DNA of 5,943 nucleotides. It comes from a virus. Its lineage: Duplodnaviria; Heunggongvirae; Uroviricota; Caudoviricetes. The notes under the pieces were generated by a model. That model saw nothing but the letters and a program-made list of their open reading frames with translations. It was not told where the DNA came from and did no database searches. Positions 1 through 5,943 of the stretch are shown here, in pieces (position 1 is the first letter of the stretch; each line of letters begins with the position of its first letter). The translations under genes and the position numbers were made by a program. The stretch lies in IMG/VR virus record IMGVR_UViG_2713897140_000009, positions 1-5,943 of that record. One strand, written 5' to 3'.

Positions 1-20
1 GCCCTGGAAATACCCCACAG

Positions 21-58
21 CCCCGAAAAAGAGCCAGTCAGTTGCTTAACTGACTGGC
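21..58 (-). terminator. Rho-independent terminator-like hairpin
   Basis: Perfect 11-bp stem GCCAGTCAGTT/AACTGACTGGC (33-43/48-58) with loop GCTT; on the minus strand the stem is followed by TCTTTTTC (complement of 24-31). Confidence 0.4.
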
Positions 59-240
59 ATTAACCGTAAGGGTTGGTTTTTTCTTGGCACGAGAGTATTC
101 AAAACGCGCCAATAACTACTTGATTTAATTGAAGTCGAAAATTTTAAGTCAAAAATCGTATAGCTTAACGTGTAGCTAAAAATGTTTGCTGCAAAAGTAT
201 ACAATTTTAACCGTTATGACTCCCTGTTATCCGCTATCAA

Positions 241-408
241 GCTGGTGGATGATCACTGATAACTCGTATGGGAATCCCCATATCGGCATCATGCCCATGC
301 CATAACAAAAACCCCATATTCGTGGGTTTTCTGTGTTGTGGCTATTCTGCCGTTGCCGTGCTGGTGGATATTTCCGGTATGTGGCTCACCATATCGGCAT
401 CATGCCCA
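241..408. repeat. Imperfect ~120-bp tandem duplication: GCTGGTGGAT (241-250, 360-369) each followed by the 20-bp repeat CCATATCGGCATCATGCCCA (278-297, 389-408)
   Basis: Exact 20-bp direct repeat and exact 10-bp direct repeat read directly from the sequence; spacing between the 10-mer and 20-mer differs between copies (27 vs 19 nt). Confidence 0.6.
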
Positions 409-626
409 CCAGCGTGATTGGTTGCTGGTGGGCTGCATCACCATCATGGTGATGATGCAGTGAATGTAAGGATTACTTAGGTTAGGGGCGTAACTCATTG
501 TCATTTTTTGAGCAGACCGGGAATCTCCGGTTTGGTTACTCTGTAACCAAGTCAATTTTATTTACTCTGTTGTGAGGGACTATAAGTTCTGCGCAAATTT
601 CCCCGGTTTCCTCAAATTGAGTTTCT

Positions 627-762
627 CGAAAATATCAGCGGGTTAGCGATTAAGCTGGCGAGTAATTAAACTGCGAAAATTTCGTAGTTTGTGACTATCT
701 GAAAGATAGTCGGTTGTTCCGACCTCAGCCATTGGCGGTCTCCGAAAATATCAACGGGTTAG
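627..762. repeat. Direct repeat pair CGAAAATATCA(G/A)CGGGTTAG (627-645 and 743-762), each containing an IHF-consensus-like core
   Basis: Two 19/20-nt matching copies 116 bp apart. Copy 2 contains TATCAACGGGTTA, matching the IHF consensus WATCAANNNNTTR exactly; copy 1 has one mismatch. Confidence 0.45.
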
Positions 763-768
763 GCCATC

Positions 769-808
769 GTGCAAATTTGCACTCTGCCAGCCAACGCAAT
801 TTTGCGTT
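769..808. promoter_or_regulatory. Two adjacent perfect palindromes with a shared core: GTGCAAATTTGCAC (769-782) and AACGCAATTTTGCGTT (793-808); candidate tandem operator
   Basis: Perfect 14-bp and 16-bp palindromes, centres about 25 bp apart, sharing a GCAA-(A/T-tract)-TTGC core. Two perfect palindromes of this length so close together are unlikely by chance. The binding protein is unknown. Confidence 0.4.
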
Positions 809-1027
809 ATCAGTCCTCAGATTTGAGGGATGTAGCCAGCTTTTCCCCCAATAGGGGGATTATCCAGTTACCGACGGTTTAACCGTCTGTGCCAGCACAA
901 CGAAAGAATTTGCGGGTAGCTTTAAACTACTTACAACATCCAATCTTACAGGCCGTGCCTTTCTAACTTTTTGCAATGTAATAAGTCAGGTAGCGCTATG
1001 CGTTCCACCGTGTACACCGCGTTCCGT

Positions 1028-1052
1028 AAAAACCACAGATTCGTGGTTTTCC
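1028..1052 (-). terminator. Terminator-like hairpin immediately after the Nu1-like ORF
   Basis: Stem AAAACCAC/GTGGTTTT with a 6-nt loop, located 15 nt past the stop at 1067-1069; the U-tract is partly inside the stem, so efficiency is uncertain. Confidence 0.35.
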
Positions 1053-1066
1053 TGAATATCATGAAT

Positions 1067-1451
1067 CTACCGCCGCAACCGTTCCGGCTTCTTCCACTGG
1101 TAAGTATTTTTCATGCTCTCCCTCCGTTGTTGAGAACGGCGACGGTATGCCAGCAACTCAAGGACTCTGGTTCGTATGTTGCGCATATCCACGCCGTTAA
1201 GCTCAATACCGTCACGGCGCATAACCTCAGCAACAACACGCGCATAGTTTTCGGCTGTCACGCTGTCCGGCTGCGTGGCCACCTGTTTGCCTGTTGCCTG
1301 ACTGATTCCGGTAATACGGCGGATTACTTTCAGTAGTTCGGCGTCGGTCATGGTTATGGTCTCCATAGTGATGGGGGAACAATTTCTGTAATCTGCGAAG
1401 CTGGCGATCGGTCAGACTCAAATGCCTGGCAACTTCAGTCTGAGTAGCCAC
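1067..1451 (-). CDS. Nu1-like (small terminase / Rpp-like) HTH protein, apparently frameshifted; would be 127 aa if the C5 run at 1373-1377 were C4
   Basis: GTG start at 1451 preceded by GAGGTG at a 5-6 nt spacing. N-terminus VATQTEVARHLSLTDRQLRRLQKL resembles the Nu1 winged-HTH (MEVNKKQLADIFGASIRTIQNWQ) and sits about 210 nt past cosN, as Nu1 does in lambda. That frame degenerates into low-complexity sequence after about 28 codons, while a protein-like reading frame (track ORF 1067..1366) continues in a different frame. A 1-nt change in the C5 homopolymer joins them. Confidence 0.5.
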
Positions 1452-1526
1452 TGTTCACCTCGCCAAAAAATCTCCCCTCATGCGTTTTAAACATGCATCT
1501 TGCGAACAACTTTATGAAACGCGGCA

Positions 1527-1706
1527 TATATGTCCGGTTTGAGTGTTCAATTTTTGCGCATGTCCGGTTCACGGAAAGTGAATTTTTATATTTTTCAAAT
1601 AGTTAACTCCCAGAAAAACCGGACATGGTTTCCGAAAAATTTTCATAAATAGTGAAATTCTGCGCCGCTCCCGCCCCGTAACGGGTCCATATGCCGGAAA
1701 GGACCC
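1527..1706 (-). other. Lambda-type cos site: cosQ (1694-1706), cosN region (1662-1680), conserved cosN-proximal block (1633-1656), and three ATGTCCGGTT repeats in R-site positions (1530-1539, 1560-1569; inverted copy 1617-1626)
   Basis: Minus strand reads ACGGGTCCTTTCCGG-N14-ACGGGGCGGGAGCGGCGCAGAATTTCACTATTTATGAAAATTTTTCGG, against my recall of lambda ACGGGTCCTTTCCGG-N14-ACGGGGCGGCGACCTCGCGGGTTTTCGCTATTTATGAAAATTTTCCGG. cosQ and the cosQ-cosN spacing are identical; the 12-nt cohesive-end position reads GGGCGGGAGCGG versus lambda GGGCGGCGACCT. The three 10-bp repeats (two direct, one inverted, with an AT-rich spacer) occupy the place of lambda R3/R2/R1 but differ in sequence. Confidence 0.6.
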
Positions 1707-1708
1707 GT

Positions 1709-1731
1709 AAAAAAAGCCGGATTTCTCCGGC
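1709..1731 (-). terminator. Rho-independent terminator of the capsid cassette
   Basis: Minus strand GCCGGAGAAATCCGGC followed by TTTTTTT, starting 5 nt past the stop of the 137-aa ORF. Confidence 0.65.
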
Positions 1732-1736
1732 CTGTC

Positions 1737-2150
1737 TCAGATGGTTTTCAGTATGCGATCGATGTCGCCGTCATCGCCCGGGTTTCTGCCATCGTATGCC
1801 ATGCCAGCTGATACGGCTTTCGGGCTGTGTATGTCCATAAAGTTTTCAAAGGCTGCGGTAAGCTCTGGTGCAACCTTCTGGCGTTCCTGCTCTATGGTCA
1901 TGCTAAGAATGCTTTTAGCCGTACCAACATCGATACAAGGCACGTTTGCCATTGCACGTAACAGCGGCTGATAGTCGCCAGATTCATCAAGCGCCATAAT
2001 CGCATCAGCGCGCGGCTTGTCCTGCTCTTCCAGTTTGTTAAGTTGATATATGGCCTCGTAGGTTGATAACCCTCTGTCAGCCATTGCCCGCGCTTCGGCT
2101 TTAAATTTACTCGCCAGCGGTAGCGCCATGATGCTTTCATTCGTTGCCAT
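1737..2150 (-). CDS. Hypothetical 137-aa protein, last gene of the capsid cassette
   Basis: ATG at 2150 with AGGGGGAA 4-5 nt upstream, starting 13 nt after the gpD-like stop, followed by a terminator. Protein-like composition; I do not recognise the family. Its position and size are similar to lambda FI, but no sequence similarity is seen. Confidence 0.6.
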   Translation of the reverse strand: MATNESIMALPLASKFKAEARAMADRGLSTYEAIYQLNKLEEQDKPRADAIMALDESGDYQPLLRAMANVPCIDVGTAKSILSMTIEQERQKVAPELTAAFENFMDIHSPKAVSAGMAYDGRNPGDDGDIDRILKTI

Positions 2151-2162
2151 CGTTCCCCCTGC

Positions 2163-2498
2163 TTATCGGGCCAGCGGCTGAACGGATACGCCAGAACCCG
2201 TAAAGGCGGCGCATTTTTTCGCATCGGTGTCGACGCTCTCAGGCCAGTTAACGGCGGCAATATTGAATATCCCCGTCTTGTAACACTGTGCTGATTTCTG
2301 CTTTGACGTGTCCACGGGGTACGCCGTCAGATAAACAGCCTTGCCAGATTCCTGACCATCCCACGCCTTAAACTCGCCATTGTCCGCCAGCATCAGCGGG
2401 GTAAATTCCTGAATAACGCCAGCATCAGCGGCAAAATGTACCAGCGTCGTGGCGACCTGCTGACTGCCTGCAAATAACTCAACATATGGAGTGCCCAT
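2163..2498 (-). CDS. Head decoration protein, lambda gpD-like (111 aa)
   Basis: TPLMLADNGEFKAWDG, YKTGIFNIAAVNWPE and KKCAAFTGSGVSV align with lambda gpD TPLMLDTSSRKLVAWDG, YKSGTFRYEDVLWPE and KKRTAFAGTAISIV. Same length class; GGGAGA Shine-Dalgarno 6 nt upstream of the ATG. Confidence 0.85.
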   Translation of the reverse strand: MGTPYVELFAGSQQVATTLVHFAADAGVIQEFTPLMLADNGEFKAWDGQESGKAVYLTAYPVDTSKQKSAQCYKTGIFNIAAVNWPESVDTDAKKCAAFTGSGVSVQPLAR

Positions 2499-2509
2499 AG
2501 AATCTCCCG

Positions 2510-3565
2510 TTAACCAATTTTGACGGTAACAAATTTGCGAATATCTGCCGGAACCGGCTGCGGTGCGCTGTGCGTCTGCACGTACTCAATCGCCGGATCG
2601 CCGTCCTCAATCCAGTTTTTCGGGTAAAACATGTTTTGCGTTGCGCCCGTTCTTACTGCGTCCTGATCCATAATCGCACCATAGGCCACCAGCCCTTTAT
2701 TGTTGGTGTTGCCCAGGACAAGCAAATCAGGCTCAAGGAAATATTTTTCGGTGCCGTCGCTGTCGGCGTATTTGCCGGAATAGACGATAAGGGCAATATC
2801 GCCCAGATAGCCTTTAAAGCTCACCACTTCGCCCAGGTTTTTACACGCCAGCTCTGCGGCGGATTCTGAACCACGGGAAAGATCGTACAGCTCGCGGAAT
2901 TTTTTAAAGCTGCGTAACGTTCGCCATACCTCAGCGCCCATAATCATGACGTTGGCGGGGCAGCTGGCCTGTTCGGCGTATAGCTCGATGTCATCTGTCG
3001 GATCATGCGTCTCTTTATTCTGCTCAGACCATTTTTTTCCTGGCCCCTGATGGACAATGCAGTTTGCCGGCATATTCCAGTCGATTTCATAGCGTTCTAT
3101 GCCTTCGCCTTCAATGATGTTTTTTCCGGTCGTGACCGCATTCACTGCCAGCCATTCCACACGCGCTTTAATGGCGTTTATCTGGCGGCGCATGTTGCCA
3201 GTAATGAGGCGCATACGTCGCCAGGTGGGGTCGTTAAGCTGTGCCGGATCTTCTCCAGCCATGCGCATAATGGTTTTTGATGGATCGATTTCGTGCTTTG
3301 GCTTCATGTAGCCGGGGCGGATAGTGCTTGTTTCGTACCCTTTATCGCGCTGAACCTGGCTACCCACCATAGGCGAACAAAACGCCGACATGGTGACTTC
3401 TTCAATATCCAGGGTATCCAGCATGATGTCCTGCGTGTTGAAGGTCGCCACGTTCGGAAAAAACAGCGACGTAAACAGCGGACTGAATCTAAAATCCGGA
3501 ACATCCTGCCGATTCAGGTACGCGAAAAGCTGGTTAGTGTTAAGAGCCGTTGCTTTACCTGCCAT
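2510..3565 (-). CDS. Major capsid protein, lambda gpE-like (351 aa)
   Basis: Multiple co-linear blocks shared with lambda gpE: FRFSPLFTSLFF vs FKFDPLFLRLFF; PGYMKPKHEIDP vs PGYVKPKHEVNP; DPTDDIELYA vs DPTDDIEAYA; YPKNWIEDGDPA vs YPKNWVTTGDPA; similar length (351 vs 341 aa). Confidence 0.92.
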   Translation of the reverse strand: MAGKATALNTNQLFAYLNRQDVPDFRFSPLFTSLFFPNVATFNTQDIMLDTLDIEEVTMSAFCSPMVGSQVQRDKGYETSTIRPGYMKPKHEIDPSKTIMRMAGEDPAQLNDPTWRRMRLITGNMRRQINAIKARVEWLAVNAVTTGKNIIEGEGIERYEIDWNMPANCIVHQGPGKKWSEQNKETHDPTDDIELYAEQASCPANVMIMGAEVWRTLRSFKKFRELYDLSRGSESAAELACKNLGEVVSFKGYLGDIALIVYSGKYADSDGTEKYFLEPDLLVLGNTNNKGLVAYGAIMDQDAVRTGATQNMFYPKNWIEDGDPAIEYVQTHSAPQPVPADIRKFVTVKIG

Positions 3566-3771
3566 TATTCACCCCCGTGAACCTGATTCATGCCCAACGC
3601 CGCACGTAAATAGGCGCGCACCTGCCAGCCTGTTGACGGCTCAACCATTGCCAGCGGATCAAGTCCTGCCGCAATGCTCGCTTTTACGTTCTGCTGGTGG
3701 CGTTCCTTGAGTGCCTCCACGATGTCGGGGCTTATGTAGACTGTAACCCCACCTTTTTTCTCTTCTGCCAT
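3565..3771 (-). CDS. Small hypothetical protein (68 aa from the ATG at 3771; track ORF extends to 3804), translationally coupled to the capsid gene
   Basis: The ATG at 3771 has AAGAGGAA about 9 nt upstream, whereas the upstream ATG at 3804 has no Shine-Dalgarno. Its TAA stop overlaps the gpE-like ATG (TAATG). Family not recognised. Confidence 0.5.
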   Translation of the reverse strand: MAEEKKGGVTVYISPDIVEALKERHQQNVKASIAAGLDPLAMVEPSTGWQVRAYLRAALGMNQVHGGE

Positions 3772-3804
3772 AGTCAGAAATTCCTCTTTGACGTTAAAAA
3801 TCAT

Positions 3805-3855
3805 AACTGGATGTTCATCCAGTTATGATTATAATCATGATTTCATATTTCGCAA
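3805..3855 (-). promoter_or_regulatory. Candidate sigma70 promoter of the capsid cassette (-35 TTGCGA at 3850-3855, 16-nt spacer, -10 TATAAT at 3828-3833) overlapping two dyad operators
   Basis: A perfect TATAAT lies inside the perfect 14-bp palindrome ATGATTATAATCAT (3825-3838). Immediately downstream is the dyad AACTGGATG-N2-CATCCAGTT (3805-3824). Prediction by eye only. Confidence 0.35.
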
Positions 3856-3930
3856 TAATATCGATCCATGTTGCAAATTATGAAATGATTTCCGGAAACA
3901 GTAGTCACCATGCTGTTAACCTCATATATG

Positions 3931-3974
3931 AAAAAGCCCGCTAAGTTTGCCTCCTGTACTTATCGGGCTTTTTT
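3931..3974. terminator. Bidirectional terminator-like hairpin (A5 - interrupted 10-bp stem - T6)
   Basis: AAAAAGCCCGCTAAGT...ACTTATCGGGCTTTTTT: stem flanked by an A-run on one side and a T-run on the other, so it could terminate on either strand. Confidence 0.35.
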
Positions 3975-4020
3975 ATCTGCCTGCAAAGGTGTCGAACAAA
4001 AAAACAATCAAAATCGACAC

Positions 4021-4064
4021 CATAAAAATAAAACCACTGTAATATCAATCCATTACAGTAGTGG
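4021..4064 (-). terminator. Terminator-like hairpin (second in tandem after the SSB gene)
   Basis: 8-bp stem ACTGTAAT/ATTACAGT (4036-4043/4052-4059) with an 8-nt loop; on the minus strand it is followed by TTTTATTTTTAT. Confidence 0.35.
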
Positions 4065-4101
4065 TGATGACGAATGAAATTTCAAAAACTAGCCTTTTTC
4101 C

Positions 4102-4145
4102 GCGCCGCTCCCGCCCCGTGGCAGGTCACTACACCGGGAGGACCC
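4102..4145 (-). other. Second cosQ/cosN-like segment, lacking the ATGTCCGGTT R-repeats
   Basis: The 18-mer GCGCCGCTCCCGCCCCGT (4102-4119) is identical to 1662-1679. It is followed after the same 14-nt spacing by a slightly degenerate cosQ (minus strand GGGTCCTCCCGG, 4134-4145). The surrounding ~75 bp is about 80% identical to 1660-1735. Confidence 0.45.
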
Positions 4146-4147
4146 AT

Positions 4148-4169
4148 AAAAAAGCCGGATTGCTCCGGC
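4148..4169 (-). terminator. Rho-independent terminator after the SSB gene
   Basis: Minus strand GCCGGAGCAATCCGGC followed by TTTTTT; a paralog of the terminator at 1709-1731. Confidence 0.6.
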
Positions 4170-4185
4170 TTCTGTTACTCGTTGC

Positions 4186-4608
4186 TTAAAACGGTATGTT
4201 ATCCCCGTACGGATCATCATTTCCCGCCTGTTGTTTTGCTCTGCTCAGTGCATCAGCAGCCTGCCCCTGTTGGCCTTTTTTGCCGCCCGGTCGCGCCGTT
4301 CTCGCACTGATTACGCTGTCTGCGATAACCTGCCAGCCCTGCCGCATTTCCCCGTTCTGTCCGGTCCACTGGCTCACCTGCATGTTACCCGCCACGCTCA
4401 GGGGTTCACCCTTGCGGTGCTTTGCCAGTGCTTCGGCCTGTCTGCCAAACGCCAGGACGGATAACCACATCGTCGCCGTTCCGTCATCGGCCTGGCTGCA
4501 CGGCAGGGGAACCGCCATACTCGCCATCGCCATTTGTGTCCCTTTGCTGGTGGTCTTTAACTGCGGGTCAGCCACCAGCCGCCCGTAAGCTGCTATCTGT
4601 GCTGTCAT
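4186..4608 (-). CDS. ssb: Single-stranded DNA-binding protein (SSB-like, 140 aa) with a C-terminal acidic IPF tail
   Basis: FGRQAEALAKHRKGEPLSVAGNMQVSQWTGQNGEMRQGWQVIA aligns with E. coli SSB [43 protein letters not shown]. Gly/Gln-rich linker and C-terminal DDPYGDNIPF (E. coli DDDIPF). Its ATG overlaps the upstream stop (ATGA). Confidence 0.75.
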   Translation of the reverse strand: MTAQIAAYGRLVADPQLKTTSKGTQMAMASMAVPLPCSQADDGTATMWLSVLAFGRQAEALAKHRKGEPLSVAGNMQVSQWTGQNGEMRQGWQVIADSVISARTARPGGKKGQQGQAADALSRAKQQAGNDDPYGDNIPF

Positions 4609-4862
4609 GCTGTCTGCTCTCCGGTTTTAACGTTGATGGTTGTCACCTGTTCCGCTTCGGCAATCTCCCGTTCTGTCAGCGTGGCAAAGTTTGCTGCCGC
4701 CGTGGTCATGAATGCGCTTATCAGTTCAGGATGTGCTTTCGCGTATCCTTCTCCCGCGTTGCGGTCGATGATTTTTATCGCCACCCTCAGCCAGTGCTCT
4801 GTAAGGTCAATGGCGCGGTTATGTTGCTTCTTCTGATTGTTAAGTTTTCCTGATGTGTGCAT
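4605..4862 (-). CDS. Hypothetical 85-aa protein between the origin and the SSB gene
   Basis: ATG at 4862 with GAGGGGGG about 11 nt upstream; stop overlaps the SSB start (ATGA), suggesting translational coupling. Family not recognised. Confidence 0.5.
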   Translation of the reverse strand: MHTSGKLNNQKKQHNRAIDLTEHWLRVAIKIIDRNAGEGYAKAHPELISAFMTTAAANFATLTEREIAEAEQVTTINVKTGEQTA

Positions 4863-4911
4863 TTTTGTTTTTACCCCCCTCGTTTAAAAAGTTTTGGAGA
4901 TACCCCCACCT

Positions 4912-5138
4912 TGTCTACCTTATCTACCTGGTGGATGCTCAGGCCAGTAATGACGCGGGTTTTATGGTGGTAGACAGTAAAAAATCTCTGTCTACCTGAT
5001 GTCTACCCATCCCTCCGACTGGCTACAAAAACAGGTAGACAAGGTAGACAGCTTGTAGACAGTAAAAAAAAGCTGTCTACCTAAATTAATACACTGAATT
5101 AAAACAACTTTTATGTAATCAGGTAGACAAGGTAGACA
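4912..5138. repeat. Iteron-type replication origin: 11 copies of the 8-bp iteron GGTAGACA/TGTCTACC in both orientations, interspersed with A-tracts
   Basis: TGTCTACC at 4912, 4989, 5000, 5074 and a variant at 4921; GGTAGACA at 4969, 5034, 5043, 5122, 5131 and a variant at 5055. Tandem pairs have a 9-bp period. AGGTAGACAAGGTAGACAG occurs twice (5032-5050, 5120-5138). A-rich tracts at 4976-4984 and 5062-5070 could act as an unwinding element. Lies directly downstream of the rep ORF. Confidence 0.65.
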
Positions 5139-5152
5139 GCAATTGCCAAAAA

Positions 5153-5878
5153 TTATAAAAACGCGTCGCAATCGTCGGTTGTTATTGCGTTAGTCTGCGT
5201 CACTCCATTAATTTTTCGCGTAATATATTCATGTCCGTAAACTTTTGCGGCTGGCTTCATGGCCTTGCCAAAGTCATTTACGTTTAGTGGTTTGGTTCTG
5301 CCTGCGTATGCCATAAACGCCAGATAGACGCGGTAAAGGCTGTTTCTGGTCGTGTACTTCACGGAATCGCCACCGCCACCCATCATCAGGCCACGTGCTT
5401 CCTCCAGAAAATTCAGGAACTGGCAAAACTCAATAACCGGATCCGTTTGCTGCTTTATCGCCAGTGCTTCATCACCGTCACGCTGTTCCAGTAGTAAAGC
5501 CCGCGCCTTTTCAGGGTCTGCAAAGTTCGCCAGTAATCGGCGGATAATGACGGGGATTTCAGCCGCAATCTTTTCCGGTAGTTCCCTGTCTTTTTCGGCC
5601 TCGTTGACGATATTGTCGAAACGGAAAATCACGCGACGACGTGCCACGCCTCCGGCCCGTTCGGTGAATATCATCGGATTGTTATTGGTTGCCAGCACCA
5701 CCGCCCTGATTACCGCCGTAAAACGCTTTTCATATTTCGGGTTAATTTCCACGGGGTCGCCGCCCGTGATTTTCTTGATGCCCGTTCCTTCGCCTGTATA
5801 TTTCGGCTGGTCTGCCAGGACGATAAGACGACTCCCGACAACCTGTGCACGCCCACCAGCATCATCAAGCGATGTCAT
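5153..5878 (-). CDS. Replication protein resembling the C-terminal region of P4-family (D5-like) primase/SF3 helicases; no Walker A in this ORF
   Basis: GSRLIVLADQ (Walker-B-like region), KKITGGDPV, VVLATNNNP (SF3 motif-C-like TNNxP), RRRVIFRFDN and ELPEKIAAEIPVII match the conserved post-Walker-A pattern of P4 alpha-type proteins as I recall it. No GxxxxGK[ST] motif is present. The ATG overlaps the stop of the upstream ORF (ATGA). Confidence 0.6.
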   Translation of the reverse strand: MTSLDDAGGRAQVVGSRLIVLADQPKYTGEGTGIKKITGGDPVEINPKYEKRFTAVIRAVVLATNNNPMIFTERAGGVARRRVIFRFDNIVNEAEKDRELPEKIAAEIPVIIRRLLANFADPEKARALLLEQRDGDEALAIKQQTDPVIEFCQFLNFLEEARGLMMGGGGDSVKYTTRNSLYRVYLAFMAYAGRTKPLNVNDFGKAMKPAAKVYGHEYITRKINGVTQTNAITTDDCDAFL

Positions 5879-5943
5879 CTCAGCGCTGATATGACTTTCC
5901 GTGTCAAACCGGAATCTCTAATTTTGACGATTTTCTTTTTAGG
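5875..5943 (-). CDS. 3' end of an upstream ORF continuing beyond the window (C-terminus ...PKKKIVKIRDSGLTRKVISALR)
   Basis: The only minus-strand frame open to the window edge; its TGA overlaps the rep ATG. Too short to identify. Confidence 0.3.
   Translation of the reverse strand, partial: PKKKIVKIRDSGLTRKVISALR

Follow-up and report, generated by a model that had tools for sequence, protein, structure and literature searches.

We analyzed a stretch of 5,943 nucleotides from a caudoviricete record of IMG/VR (IMGVR_UViG_2713897140_000009, positions 1 to 5,943), referred to here as the window, which holds near its left end about 0.9 kb without large open reading frames (ORFs). A preliminary description made from the letters alone had singled out this region (60-970) as packed with hairpins and dyads. 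Judged by the genes around it, the part from 86 to 1066 is the gene-free, integrase-distal end of a phage-inducible chromosomal island (PICI) of the EcCICFT073 type, which is integrated in the tRNA-Pro gene proL of E. coli. Our reading, to which we give a probability of roughly 55%, is that this end serves as a DNA-level platform of protein sites, composed of the attachment site attR, Chi sites, terminators, and an array of dyads and boxes for integration host factor (IHF) copied from the roi/rha genes of lambdoid phages.

Hairpin density of the gene-free island end

The region 60-970 is a mosaic of modules and not one feature. The largest ORF overlapping it has 52 aa, in line with the absence of large ORFs noted before, and the five inverted repeats listed in the preliminary description are all present. 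The two direct-repeat families mentioned there are likewise real and correspond to D1 and D4 of our repeat search. The impression that the region is denser in such structures than spacer DNA was borne out: we found 17 perfect hairpins (stem length 5 or more, loop length 3-8) in 60-970 compared to 5.0 ± 2.3 in dinucleotide-preserving shuffles, none of the 500 shuffles reaching 17. With stems of at least 6, the numbers were 8 and 1.3 ± 1.2, respectively. Elsewhere in the window, 1-10 hairpins were counted per 911 nt, and 1-7 per equal length in its coding parts. The fold energy of 100-1066 deviates from that of shuffles with z -10.4 on the plus strand and z -7.2 on the minus strand.

The first 26 bases of 60-970 (60-85) do not belong to the element, being the terminus of an IS4 insertion sequence and a host spacer. 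Apart from these bases the region lies inside the element and is not host chromosome, and its modules are kept in hundreds of related elements, so that it is not unconserved junk either. The first reading of the sequence had not seen the Chi and IHF consensus within the repeats, the IS4/host left edge, and the phage-gene origin of the repeat unit.

A dyad joined to an IHF box is repeated at the end of the last operon

An array of repeat units occupies 601-890. Unit 1 (601-650, plus strand) consists of the dyad CTCAAaTTGAG at 611-621 and the box CGAAAATATCAGCGGGTTAG at 627-646, and unit 2 (717-766, plus strand) of the dyad AGCCAtTGGCG and the box CGAAAATATCAACGGGTTAG at 743-762, which includes an exact IHF consensus at 749-761. 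The box repeat, CGAAAATATCA(G/A)CGGGTTAG, is the IHF consensus WATCAANNNNTTR after an A-rich tract. Two spacer dyads, CTGCGAAAATTTCGTAG and GACTATCTgaaAGATAGTC (671-711), are conserved between the units in many islands, with the loop variants gaa, ttc, and caa. Comparison with intact units in relatives identifies further, decayed units on the plus strand at 769-887, with dyads at 769-782, 793-808 (the box cut to ATCAG), 815-828 (of the HK620 type, without box), 844-859 (followed by the degenerate box TTATCCAGTTACC at 860-872), and 873-887. The dyads of this decayed part include three of the five hairpins and both perfect palindromes of the preliminary description, whose term regulatory hub may loosely apply to the array as a whole.

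The box was found in 39 IMG/VR contigs by an exact-pattern scan. In almost all of these contigs, as well as in the E. coli islands examined, the boxes, of which there are 2-8 per island, lie directly downstream of a conserved 94-aa gene (phrog_1561; 1067-1351, minus strand), which is the last gene of the island, and the first box overlaps its stop codon. The window has a degenerate IHF-like box over this stop codon (1054-1070, plus strand), and nearly all related islands have a box at -15 from it. Among 71 distinct units from 47 loci, the positions conserved to at least 90% read ATCA....GTTA, while the bases in between vary; the conserved positions are those of the IHF consensus. The exact consensus occurs 70 times on the plus strand and 35 times on the minus strand in 41 kb, compared to about 0.6 expected per strand.

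In 52 of the 71 units, the box is preceded by a short dyad whose centre lies 15 nt ahead of it. In an alignment of 25 distinct units, the five inner pairs of this dyad are 98.4% paired, and four of the five show compensatory changes. The covariation score of 0.378 compares to 0.119 in shuffles, with none of 500 reaching the observed value, and to at most 0.147 with slid partners, so that the dyad covaries across homologous elements. An outer helix around the dyad was dropped, being only 63% paired. Folded as RNA, the units do not exceed their shuffled versions in stability (z ~0), which points to an element that works at the DNA level.

A covariance model, R1, which was trained without the window's own island, matches the window twice and only on the plus strand, at unit 1 (57.3 bits, E 1e-11) and at unit 2 (61.5 bits, E 1e-12). 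A search of 154 kb, comprising islands and the host DNA around them, gave 20 matches of R1, every one of them at this island end and oriented alike. Among complete E. coli genomes, 977 of 5426 (about one in six) carry the unit, at 1-4 places each.

The position of the array is also evident from a circular satellite of strain Z1323CEC0013 (NZ_CP148430.1, 12,152 bp), which was deposited as a plasmid and encodes primase, AntA/AntB, PerC, and integrase next to an attP. The assembly probably captured an island in its excised or replicating form. The order in this circle is the last gene (PerC), a unit with further dyads, the attP region with TGTACA arm repeats, and int. The array thus lies between the last operon and attP/int and, in the chromosome, between the operon and host DNA. 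Another locus (L012, 3501-3771), close to the vat toxin gene, resembles the remains of an island end: three units adjoin a PerC gene and a fragment of an integrase, and the 94-aa gene is missing.

The repeat unit is homologous to a segment inside roi/rha genes

In phage and plasmid records, segments within genes annotated as roi, anti-repressor, KilA, or Rha-family regulator match the dyad and the first part of the box with 91-94% identity, and the identity is 91% over 35 nt in 41 phage records. The model trained on islands scores 59.1 bits at codons 41-57 of HK620 roi, with further matches in HK75, phi296, and a Salmonella phage-plasmid. Roi combines the domains Phage_pRha and ANT/KilAC.

Within roi/rha, the dyads of HK620 (CCTCAAATTGAGG), Salmonella rha (CCTCCAATGGAGG), and HK022 (CTGCATTGCAG) differ from each other by paired substitutions, and in all three an exact IHF consensus follows 10-11 nt after the dyad; in HK022 roi, this is the sole IHF consensus of the gene. 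The peptides encoded at the dyad differ among these genes (LPQIEVS, LPPMEVS, and PPALQHT). Since the paired substitutions alter at least two amino acids, the cis site and the protein segment made from the same bases seem to co-evolve. The respective sites are located at L054 1499-1548 (HK620 roi), L058 5786-5820 (HK022 roi), and L055 896-945.

Island units and the roi-internal site of HK022 and its relatives thus share homology, the same order and spacing of dyad and IHF consensus, and paired substitutions in the dyad. The phages carry a single copy inside a coding gene and on its sense strand, whereas the islands carry 2-8 free-standing copies, antisense to their genes and beside attP, and a Roi homologue was encoded in none of the islands examined. 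Only Roi residues 37-68 ever match island ends, which corresponds to one 50-70-nt piece of the 720-nt roi gene. By this homology, the units are free-standing copies of the dyad and IHF site within roi/rha genes. The HK620-type dyad was found in 27 of 43 distinct island ends, and an IHF-like box follows 26 of its 29 copies. A scan of viral contigs for diverse rha genes returned only near-identical roi of the HK620 type. A target of Roi within the roi gene, close to an IHF site, was reportedly described by Clerget and Boccard in 1996, with IHF making the binding of Roi more stable. We know of no work since the mid-1990s that resolved the function of the Rha/Roi family and its dependence on IHF.

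Chi sites are enriched and oriented next to the array

A cluster of Chi sites (exact 5'-GCTGGTGG-3') at 241-431 precedes the array, with sites at 241, 360, and 424 on the plus strand and at 406-413 on the minus strand; the direct repeat GCTGGTGGAT is Chi. The whole window has nine Chi sites compared to 0.16 expected from shuffles. No octamer is more frequent than Chi in the island part of the window, where the iteron of the replication origin (ori) is equally common, and in two related islands Chi alone ranks first. Over whole islands, it occurs about once per kb and in both orientations (window 88-5943; L001 12009-24400; L004 8801-18131), while the E. coli average is about 0.22 per kb.

At least one Chi site is present in 37 of 40 distinct island ends, and 51 sites in these 40 ends have the sense of the window's plus strand compared to 10 in the opposite sense. 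The sequences around the sites are of several kinds, an argument that selection acts on Chi itself. Their orientation follows the gene order of the island and not the replication of the chromosome, because islands next to clpS and phoQ are, by the gene orientations of K-12, inverted to the fork relative to the proL island. The idea that Chi sites diverge from cos1, the first of two lambda-like cohesive-end (cos) sites of the island, and thereby protect both linear ends gave an unclear picture in seven islands (27:20, 14:10) and was dropped. Lateral transduction was not retained as a reason for the cluster, since cos elements are considered incapable of it (PMC12829572).

The Chi sites are interspersed with further repeats. 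The most stable hairpin of the region is a dyad with a 10-bp stem made of two head-to-head Chi sites (404-433; -23.3 kcal/mol, z -3.9). The direct repeat D1 has its first copy at 266-297 (plus strand), including the palindrome TATGGGaatcCCCATA at 267-282, and its second at 377-408. In most related islands, a perfect palindrome, TATGGGGATCCCCATA, lies about 57 nt ahead of Chi; its counterpart in the window is imperfect. This palindrome adjoins a T-loop hairpin, ACCGGA-T7-TCCGGT, always at this distance from Chi, and is kept in islands with different att sites. The palindrome CATCACCATcATGGTGATG (436-454), the homologue of which in relatives is GATCACCGTAATGATGATC, is a conserved module partner of the Chi block.

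The outer part of the region is a putative attR site

The preliminary description had also considered an attachment or recombination region with accessory binding sites, which applies to 86-185. The island in strain FDAARGOS_943 is 99.9% identical to the window from position 80 on, and at its attL the 10-bp core GGCACGAGAG lies within the 3' end of proL; the same core, a copy of part of this 3' end, occupies 86-95 of the window. An exact IHF consensus, AATCAAGTAGTTA (113-125, minus strand), is located 18 bp from the core in an H'-type position. Four different proL islands share its position, with fixed consensus bases and variable N4 bases. A 26-bp block at 157-182 (plus strand) contains two integrase arm-type repeats, GT(A/G)TAGCT(T/A)A. 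A block next to int at attL, a site with five of these repeats, matches it with 96% identity, and it is also conserved in other proL islands. The hairpin TAGCT-N8-AGCTA noted earlier is made up of these two repeats and is not a separate hairpin.

With a core over the tRNA 3' end that is the same in attL and attR, arm repeats on both sides, and an IHF site, 86-185 has the features of an attP arm and is predicted to be attR, serving integration and excision. It resembles the attP/attR of tyrosine integrases of the lambda and P4 types, which likewise combine a tRNA 3'-end core with repeats in both arms and an IHF site by the core. This comparison explains only 86 to about 185. The remaining 800 bp are common to islands with other att sites and are therefore not integrase-specific arms.

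Terminator-like hairpins and a fragment of a KilA-N gene

Three hairpins of the region resemble intrinsic terminators, with a GC-containing stem and a run of T. The hairpin at 308-330 lies between an A-tract and a T-tract, like a bidirectional terminator (-16.3 kcal/mol, z -3.6 on the plus strand; -11.4 on the minus strand), and its loop recurs with other stems at 1029-1050 and in the related island L005. At 516-550 (plus strand), two adjacent hairpins are followed by AATTTTATTT (-16.2 kcal/mol, z -2.5), a terminator-like arrangement for transcription from the att side; the related island L002 has a compensatory variant, TTGGTTGCtttGCAACCAA, of this hairpin. The third hairpin (1029-1050, minus strand; -11.2 kcal/mol) comes directly after the stop of the 94-aa gene and is followed by UUUUUA. 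The terminator scan matched 313-326 and 529-553 on the plus strand.

The third hairpin is part of a 60-bp fragment (994-1053, plus strand), which shares 90-92% identity with lambdoid KilA-N genes (HK620 hkbK, Stx phages, and Salmonella phages, among others) at their 3' end and terminator. This piece may now act as the terminator of the island's last gene.

Proposed function and alternative explanations

From the anatomy of the units, their conservation and covariation, and their homology to roi, we infer that IHF and Roi bind them, with the following consequences. Host IHF would bend each unit of dyad and box, and a Roi/Rha-type protein from a co-resident helper phage would bind the dyads. The resulting nucleoprotein block would stand at the border of the last operon with attP/int in the circle, or with host DNA in the integrated state. 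Such a block could act as a transcription barrier, which might hold even against anti-terminated polymerase, and the three terminator-like hairpins would close converging transcription of island and host. The island might in this way read out the helper-phage protein as a sensor or soak it up as a sponge. The Chi sites would switch RecBCD from degradation to recombination on linear or replicating DNA of the island. In general terms, we tentatively propose that PICIs and capsid-forming PICIs (cf-PICIs) of E. coli carry an array of Roi/Rha operators and IHF sites at the border of operon and attP, which detects or blocks the helper's regulator, and that the adjoining oriented Chi cluster protects or recombines their linear or replicating DNA; this broader proposal is well short of even odds.

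Several observations weigh against a platform of this kind. Both units of the window carry one broken stem pair each and several other units have decayed, so that this island may be degenerating. The copy also looks worn in other respects, with its terS/rpp gene truncated, IS4 at its edge, and IS21 in the integrase of the twin island in FDAARGOS_943. The HK022-type dyad is rare, being found in one of the 43 island ends, and the dyad of Salmonella rha is absent from these 43 ends. The units are antisense to the island genes, but on the sense strand in roi. Roi is a presumed ligand of the dyad. The polarity of Chi relative to cos over whole islands has no clear relation. Finally, the related sequences share descent, so that the counts of units and Chi sites are not independent.

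It is unlikely that the array is an element that ends the last operon independently of any phage protein, as a reiterative ihf bacterial interspersed mosaic element (RIB, BIME-1) might, the hairpins of its transcript protecting or ending the mRNA and IHF acting as a topological or transcriptional insulator. Such a role would fit the start of the array at the last gene's stop codon in nearly all islands, its position between the last gene and attP/int in the circle, the terminator-like hairpins interspersed with it, and the combination of an IHF consensus with palindromes in 2-8 copies, as in RIBs (PMC3333891). However, the units fold like shuffled sequences and their dyads lack T-runs, the consensus of repetitive extragenic palindromes (REPs) is absent, and both the homology to the inside of roi/rha and the covariation of the dyad there would be left unexplained. 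We consider it rather improbable that the region is functionless debris, i.e. scars of recombination between satellites and lambdoid phages that left fragments of roi, kilA, terminators, and intergenic DNA in an accessory-gene slot. The modules do occur in differing combinations, as expected for a mosaic, a 60-bp kilA-N 3' fragment is present, the units are homologous to a gene-internal segment, PerC and other genes occupy the same slot elsewhere, and several units of the window are decayed. Debris would, however, hardly consist of just one 50-70-nt piece of roi in 2-8 copies, in one orientation and at this end only, nor would it keep its dyad by compensatory changes, hold the IHF consensus positions fixed while the N4 bases vary, and show Chi enriched and oriented.

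Two further possibilities raised by the preliminary description, small RNAs (sRNAs) and micro-ORFs, fared worse. One or several regulatory sRNAs, or a structured 3' untranslated region yielding them, would account for the very low fold energy on both strands, the bidirectional terminator-like hairpins, and the compensatory changes in stems, and some related islands encode proteins of the ProQ/FinO family. The suggestion is nevertheless unsupported and very improbable, as a scan of 1-1100 against Rfam 15 gave no match at E up to 1, no sigma-70-like promoter was found in 1-1800 where 2.5 are expected, the conserved units are unstable as RNA, their best-conserved bases form the IHF consensus, which is a DNA signal, and the shuffling of modules would break any long transcript. 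That micro-ORFs encode small proteins here, for example 714-854, which translates the units as FRPQPLAVSENINGLG, is hardly tenable. The roi frame is open more often than at random (with a stop in 7 of 72 units), and RefSeq annotates a 41-aa ORF at this place in the twin island; yet none of nine ORFs is kept open in the homologous copies of related islands, compared to 32 of 32 for the neighbouring 94-aa gene as a control, a PHROG search of ten small ORFs gave no match, and the paired changes in the dyad lead to radical amino-acid changes.

Other candidate functions were considered and rejected. The only Rfam match in the window, to mir-374 (3919-3987; 27 bits compared to a gathering score of 54), lies outside the region and is regarded as a chance look-alike, because the matched sequence forms a bidirectional terminator hairpin, flanked by the capsid operon and the cos2 region. 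REP/BIME elements were dismissed since 1-1100 has no REP core motif of the forms looked for, and an integron attC since there is no inverted core. An origin of transfer (oriT) was considered from the sequence and rejected. There is no -12 GC for a sigma-54 promoter at the core, and the ori iteron is absent from the region, which speaks against iterons like those of P4 crr.

Comparison to known systems and significance

PICIs, att sites, Chi, and repeats combining IHF sites with palindromes are already known. For PICIs of the EcCICFT073 type, two cos sites and homologues of capsid and decoration proteins have been described (PMC6092414, PMC6739421). The present island resembles them in its homologues of capsid protein E and decoration protein D, its two cos, its primase with iterons, and its dedicated integration site. 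It differs in that terS/rpp is truncated, and the terminal non-coding region is not described in the two reports (PMC6092414, PMC6739421). RIBs and repetitive IHF-binding palindromic elements (RIPs), both of the BIME-1 kind, resemble the array in their variable copy number, in lying where a transcription unit ends, and in joining an IHF consensus to palindromes (PMC3333891). The island units, in contrast, are without REP, have a direct order of dyad and box and not an IHF site between inverted REPs, and are confined to satellite ends at 1-4 places per genome.

With regard to Chi, the island is comparable to the class of phage LLS, in which Chi is likewise the top octamer, at about 1 per kb compared to 0.22 per kb in the host, with an oriented cluster at the end. 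It is unlike this class in being a satellite, in having a non-coding oriented cluster some 1.2 kb away from cos1 and on the terminase side, the reverse of the phage rule, and in carrying both Chi orientations across the whole island. This class comprises Chi-rich lambdoid phages without an anti-RecBCD function, in the description of which satellites are not mentioned (PMC12315714). Our literature search found nothing relevant on the unit motifs, on IHF or Chi in PICIs, or on sRNAs in the O157 island, and the composite unit, its restriction to satellite ends, its derivation from inside roi, and the Chi loading of satellites were found nowhere described.

As widespread satellites, PICIs mobilize genes for virulence and defence, and their known cis-acting DNA comprises att, ori, and cos only. 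Our analysis adds a further conserved non-coding module, and it suggests a physical link between satellites and the regulator family Rha/Roi of their helper phages. It also indicates that satellites, like some lambdoid phages without Gam, are loaded with Chi. For annotation, it accounts for the spurious small ORFs that gene callers place here. If the broader proposal is true, detection of the helper's regulator could couple excision, int expression, or the transcription barrier to the helper's delayed-early expression, and the units would provide the first cis-target and biological context for the connection of Rha/Roi with IHF.

Borders and gene content of the island

The left edge of the window lies outside the satellite. 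Positions 1-61 are the right end of IS4, including its terminal hairpin at 33-58, and are 98.5-100% identical to IS4 (InsG) ends in phage records. Host homology begins at 62: the stretch 62-85 is intergenic DNA between yejO and proL and holds the right half of a bidirectional terminator hairpin that was cut by IS4, and 62-87 is identical to K-12 within the 102-bp spacer of proL and yejO. The insertion point of IS4 is accordingly the left arm of the host's yejO/proL bidirectional terminator, 24 bp from the att core of the island. The FDAARGOS_943 island is without IS4. This twin spans from yejO to an integrase adjoining proL, and its integrase is interrupted by IS21.

All genes of the window are on the minus strand. 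They comprise the 94-aa gene, a TerS/Nu1-like remnant, a scaffold-like gene, lambda D-like and E-like capsid genes, a gene for a single-stranded DNA-binding protein (SSB), an iteron origin, and the C-terminus of a primase (5153-5878). In keeping with a PICI, the twin island has int beside proL and the 10-bp core at both ends as direct repeats, and the island, of about 12-13 kb and hence within the range of about 10-15 kb for PICIs, combines a primase and an iteron origin with homologues of capsid genes E and D only and has no tail or lysis genes. Of the cos and rpp feature of PICIs, two cosN copies are seen, and the TerS/Nu1-like (rpp-type) gene is down to about 24 codons (1380-1451, minus strand). 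With the gene reduced in this way beside cos, the island has probably lost its packaging-redirection gene. Based on its gene make-up, which is that of EcCICFT073-type PICIs, the region is the non-coding, integrase-distal end of a satellite except for its first 26 bases. In other islands, accessory genes such as PerC-family regulators fill the slot held here by the non-coding end.

For the 94-aa protein, a sequence search of the PDB gave no meaningful match, its AlphaFold model is poor (predicted local distance difference test score, pLDDT, 67; three helices), and a scan of species-representative genomes returned a single locus. A protein of 137 aa (1737-2150, minus strand; phrog_1999) may be scaffold-like, as it is similar to head maturation protease families in their C-terminal part; RefSeq names it a head-tail connector. 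The ori iteron GGTAGACA is present in nine copies in the origin (4900-5150). The copy number of the iteron differs in the twin island, and the alignment breaks at 4997/5055. The two lambda-like cosN copies are located at 1662-1678 and 4102-4118. The former (region 1625-1735) is on the minus strand and is followed by a stretch closely resembling the left end of lambda. The second (region 4085-4170) is 82% identical to the first, and the two match the cos1/cos2 pair reported for EcCICFT073. The cos-proximal end of phage mEp460 matches about 150 bp here (3989-4145) with 92-96% identity, and 4043-4055 is an exact IHF consensus near the second cos-like copy.

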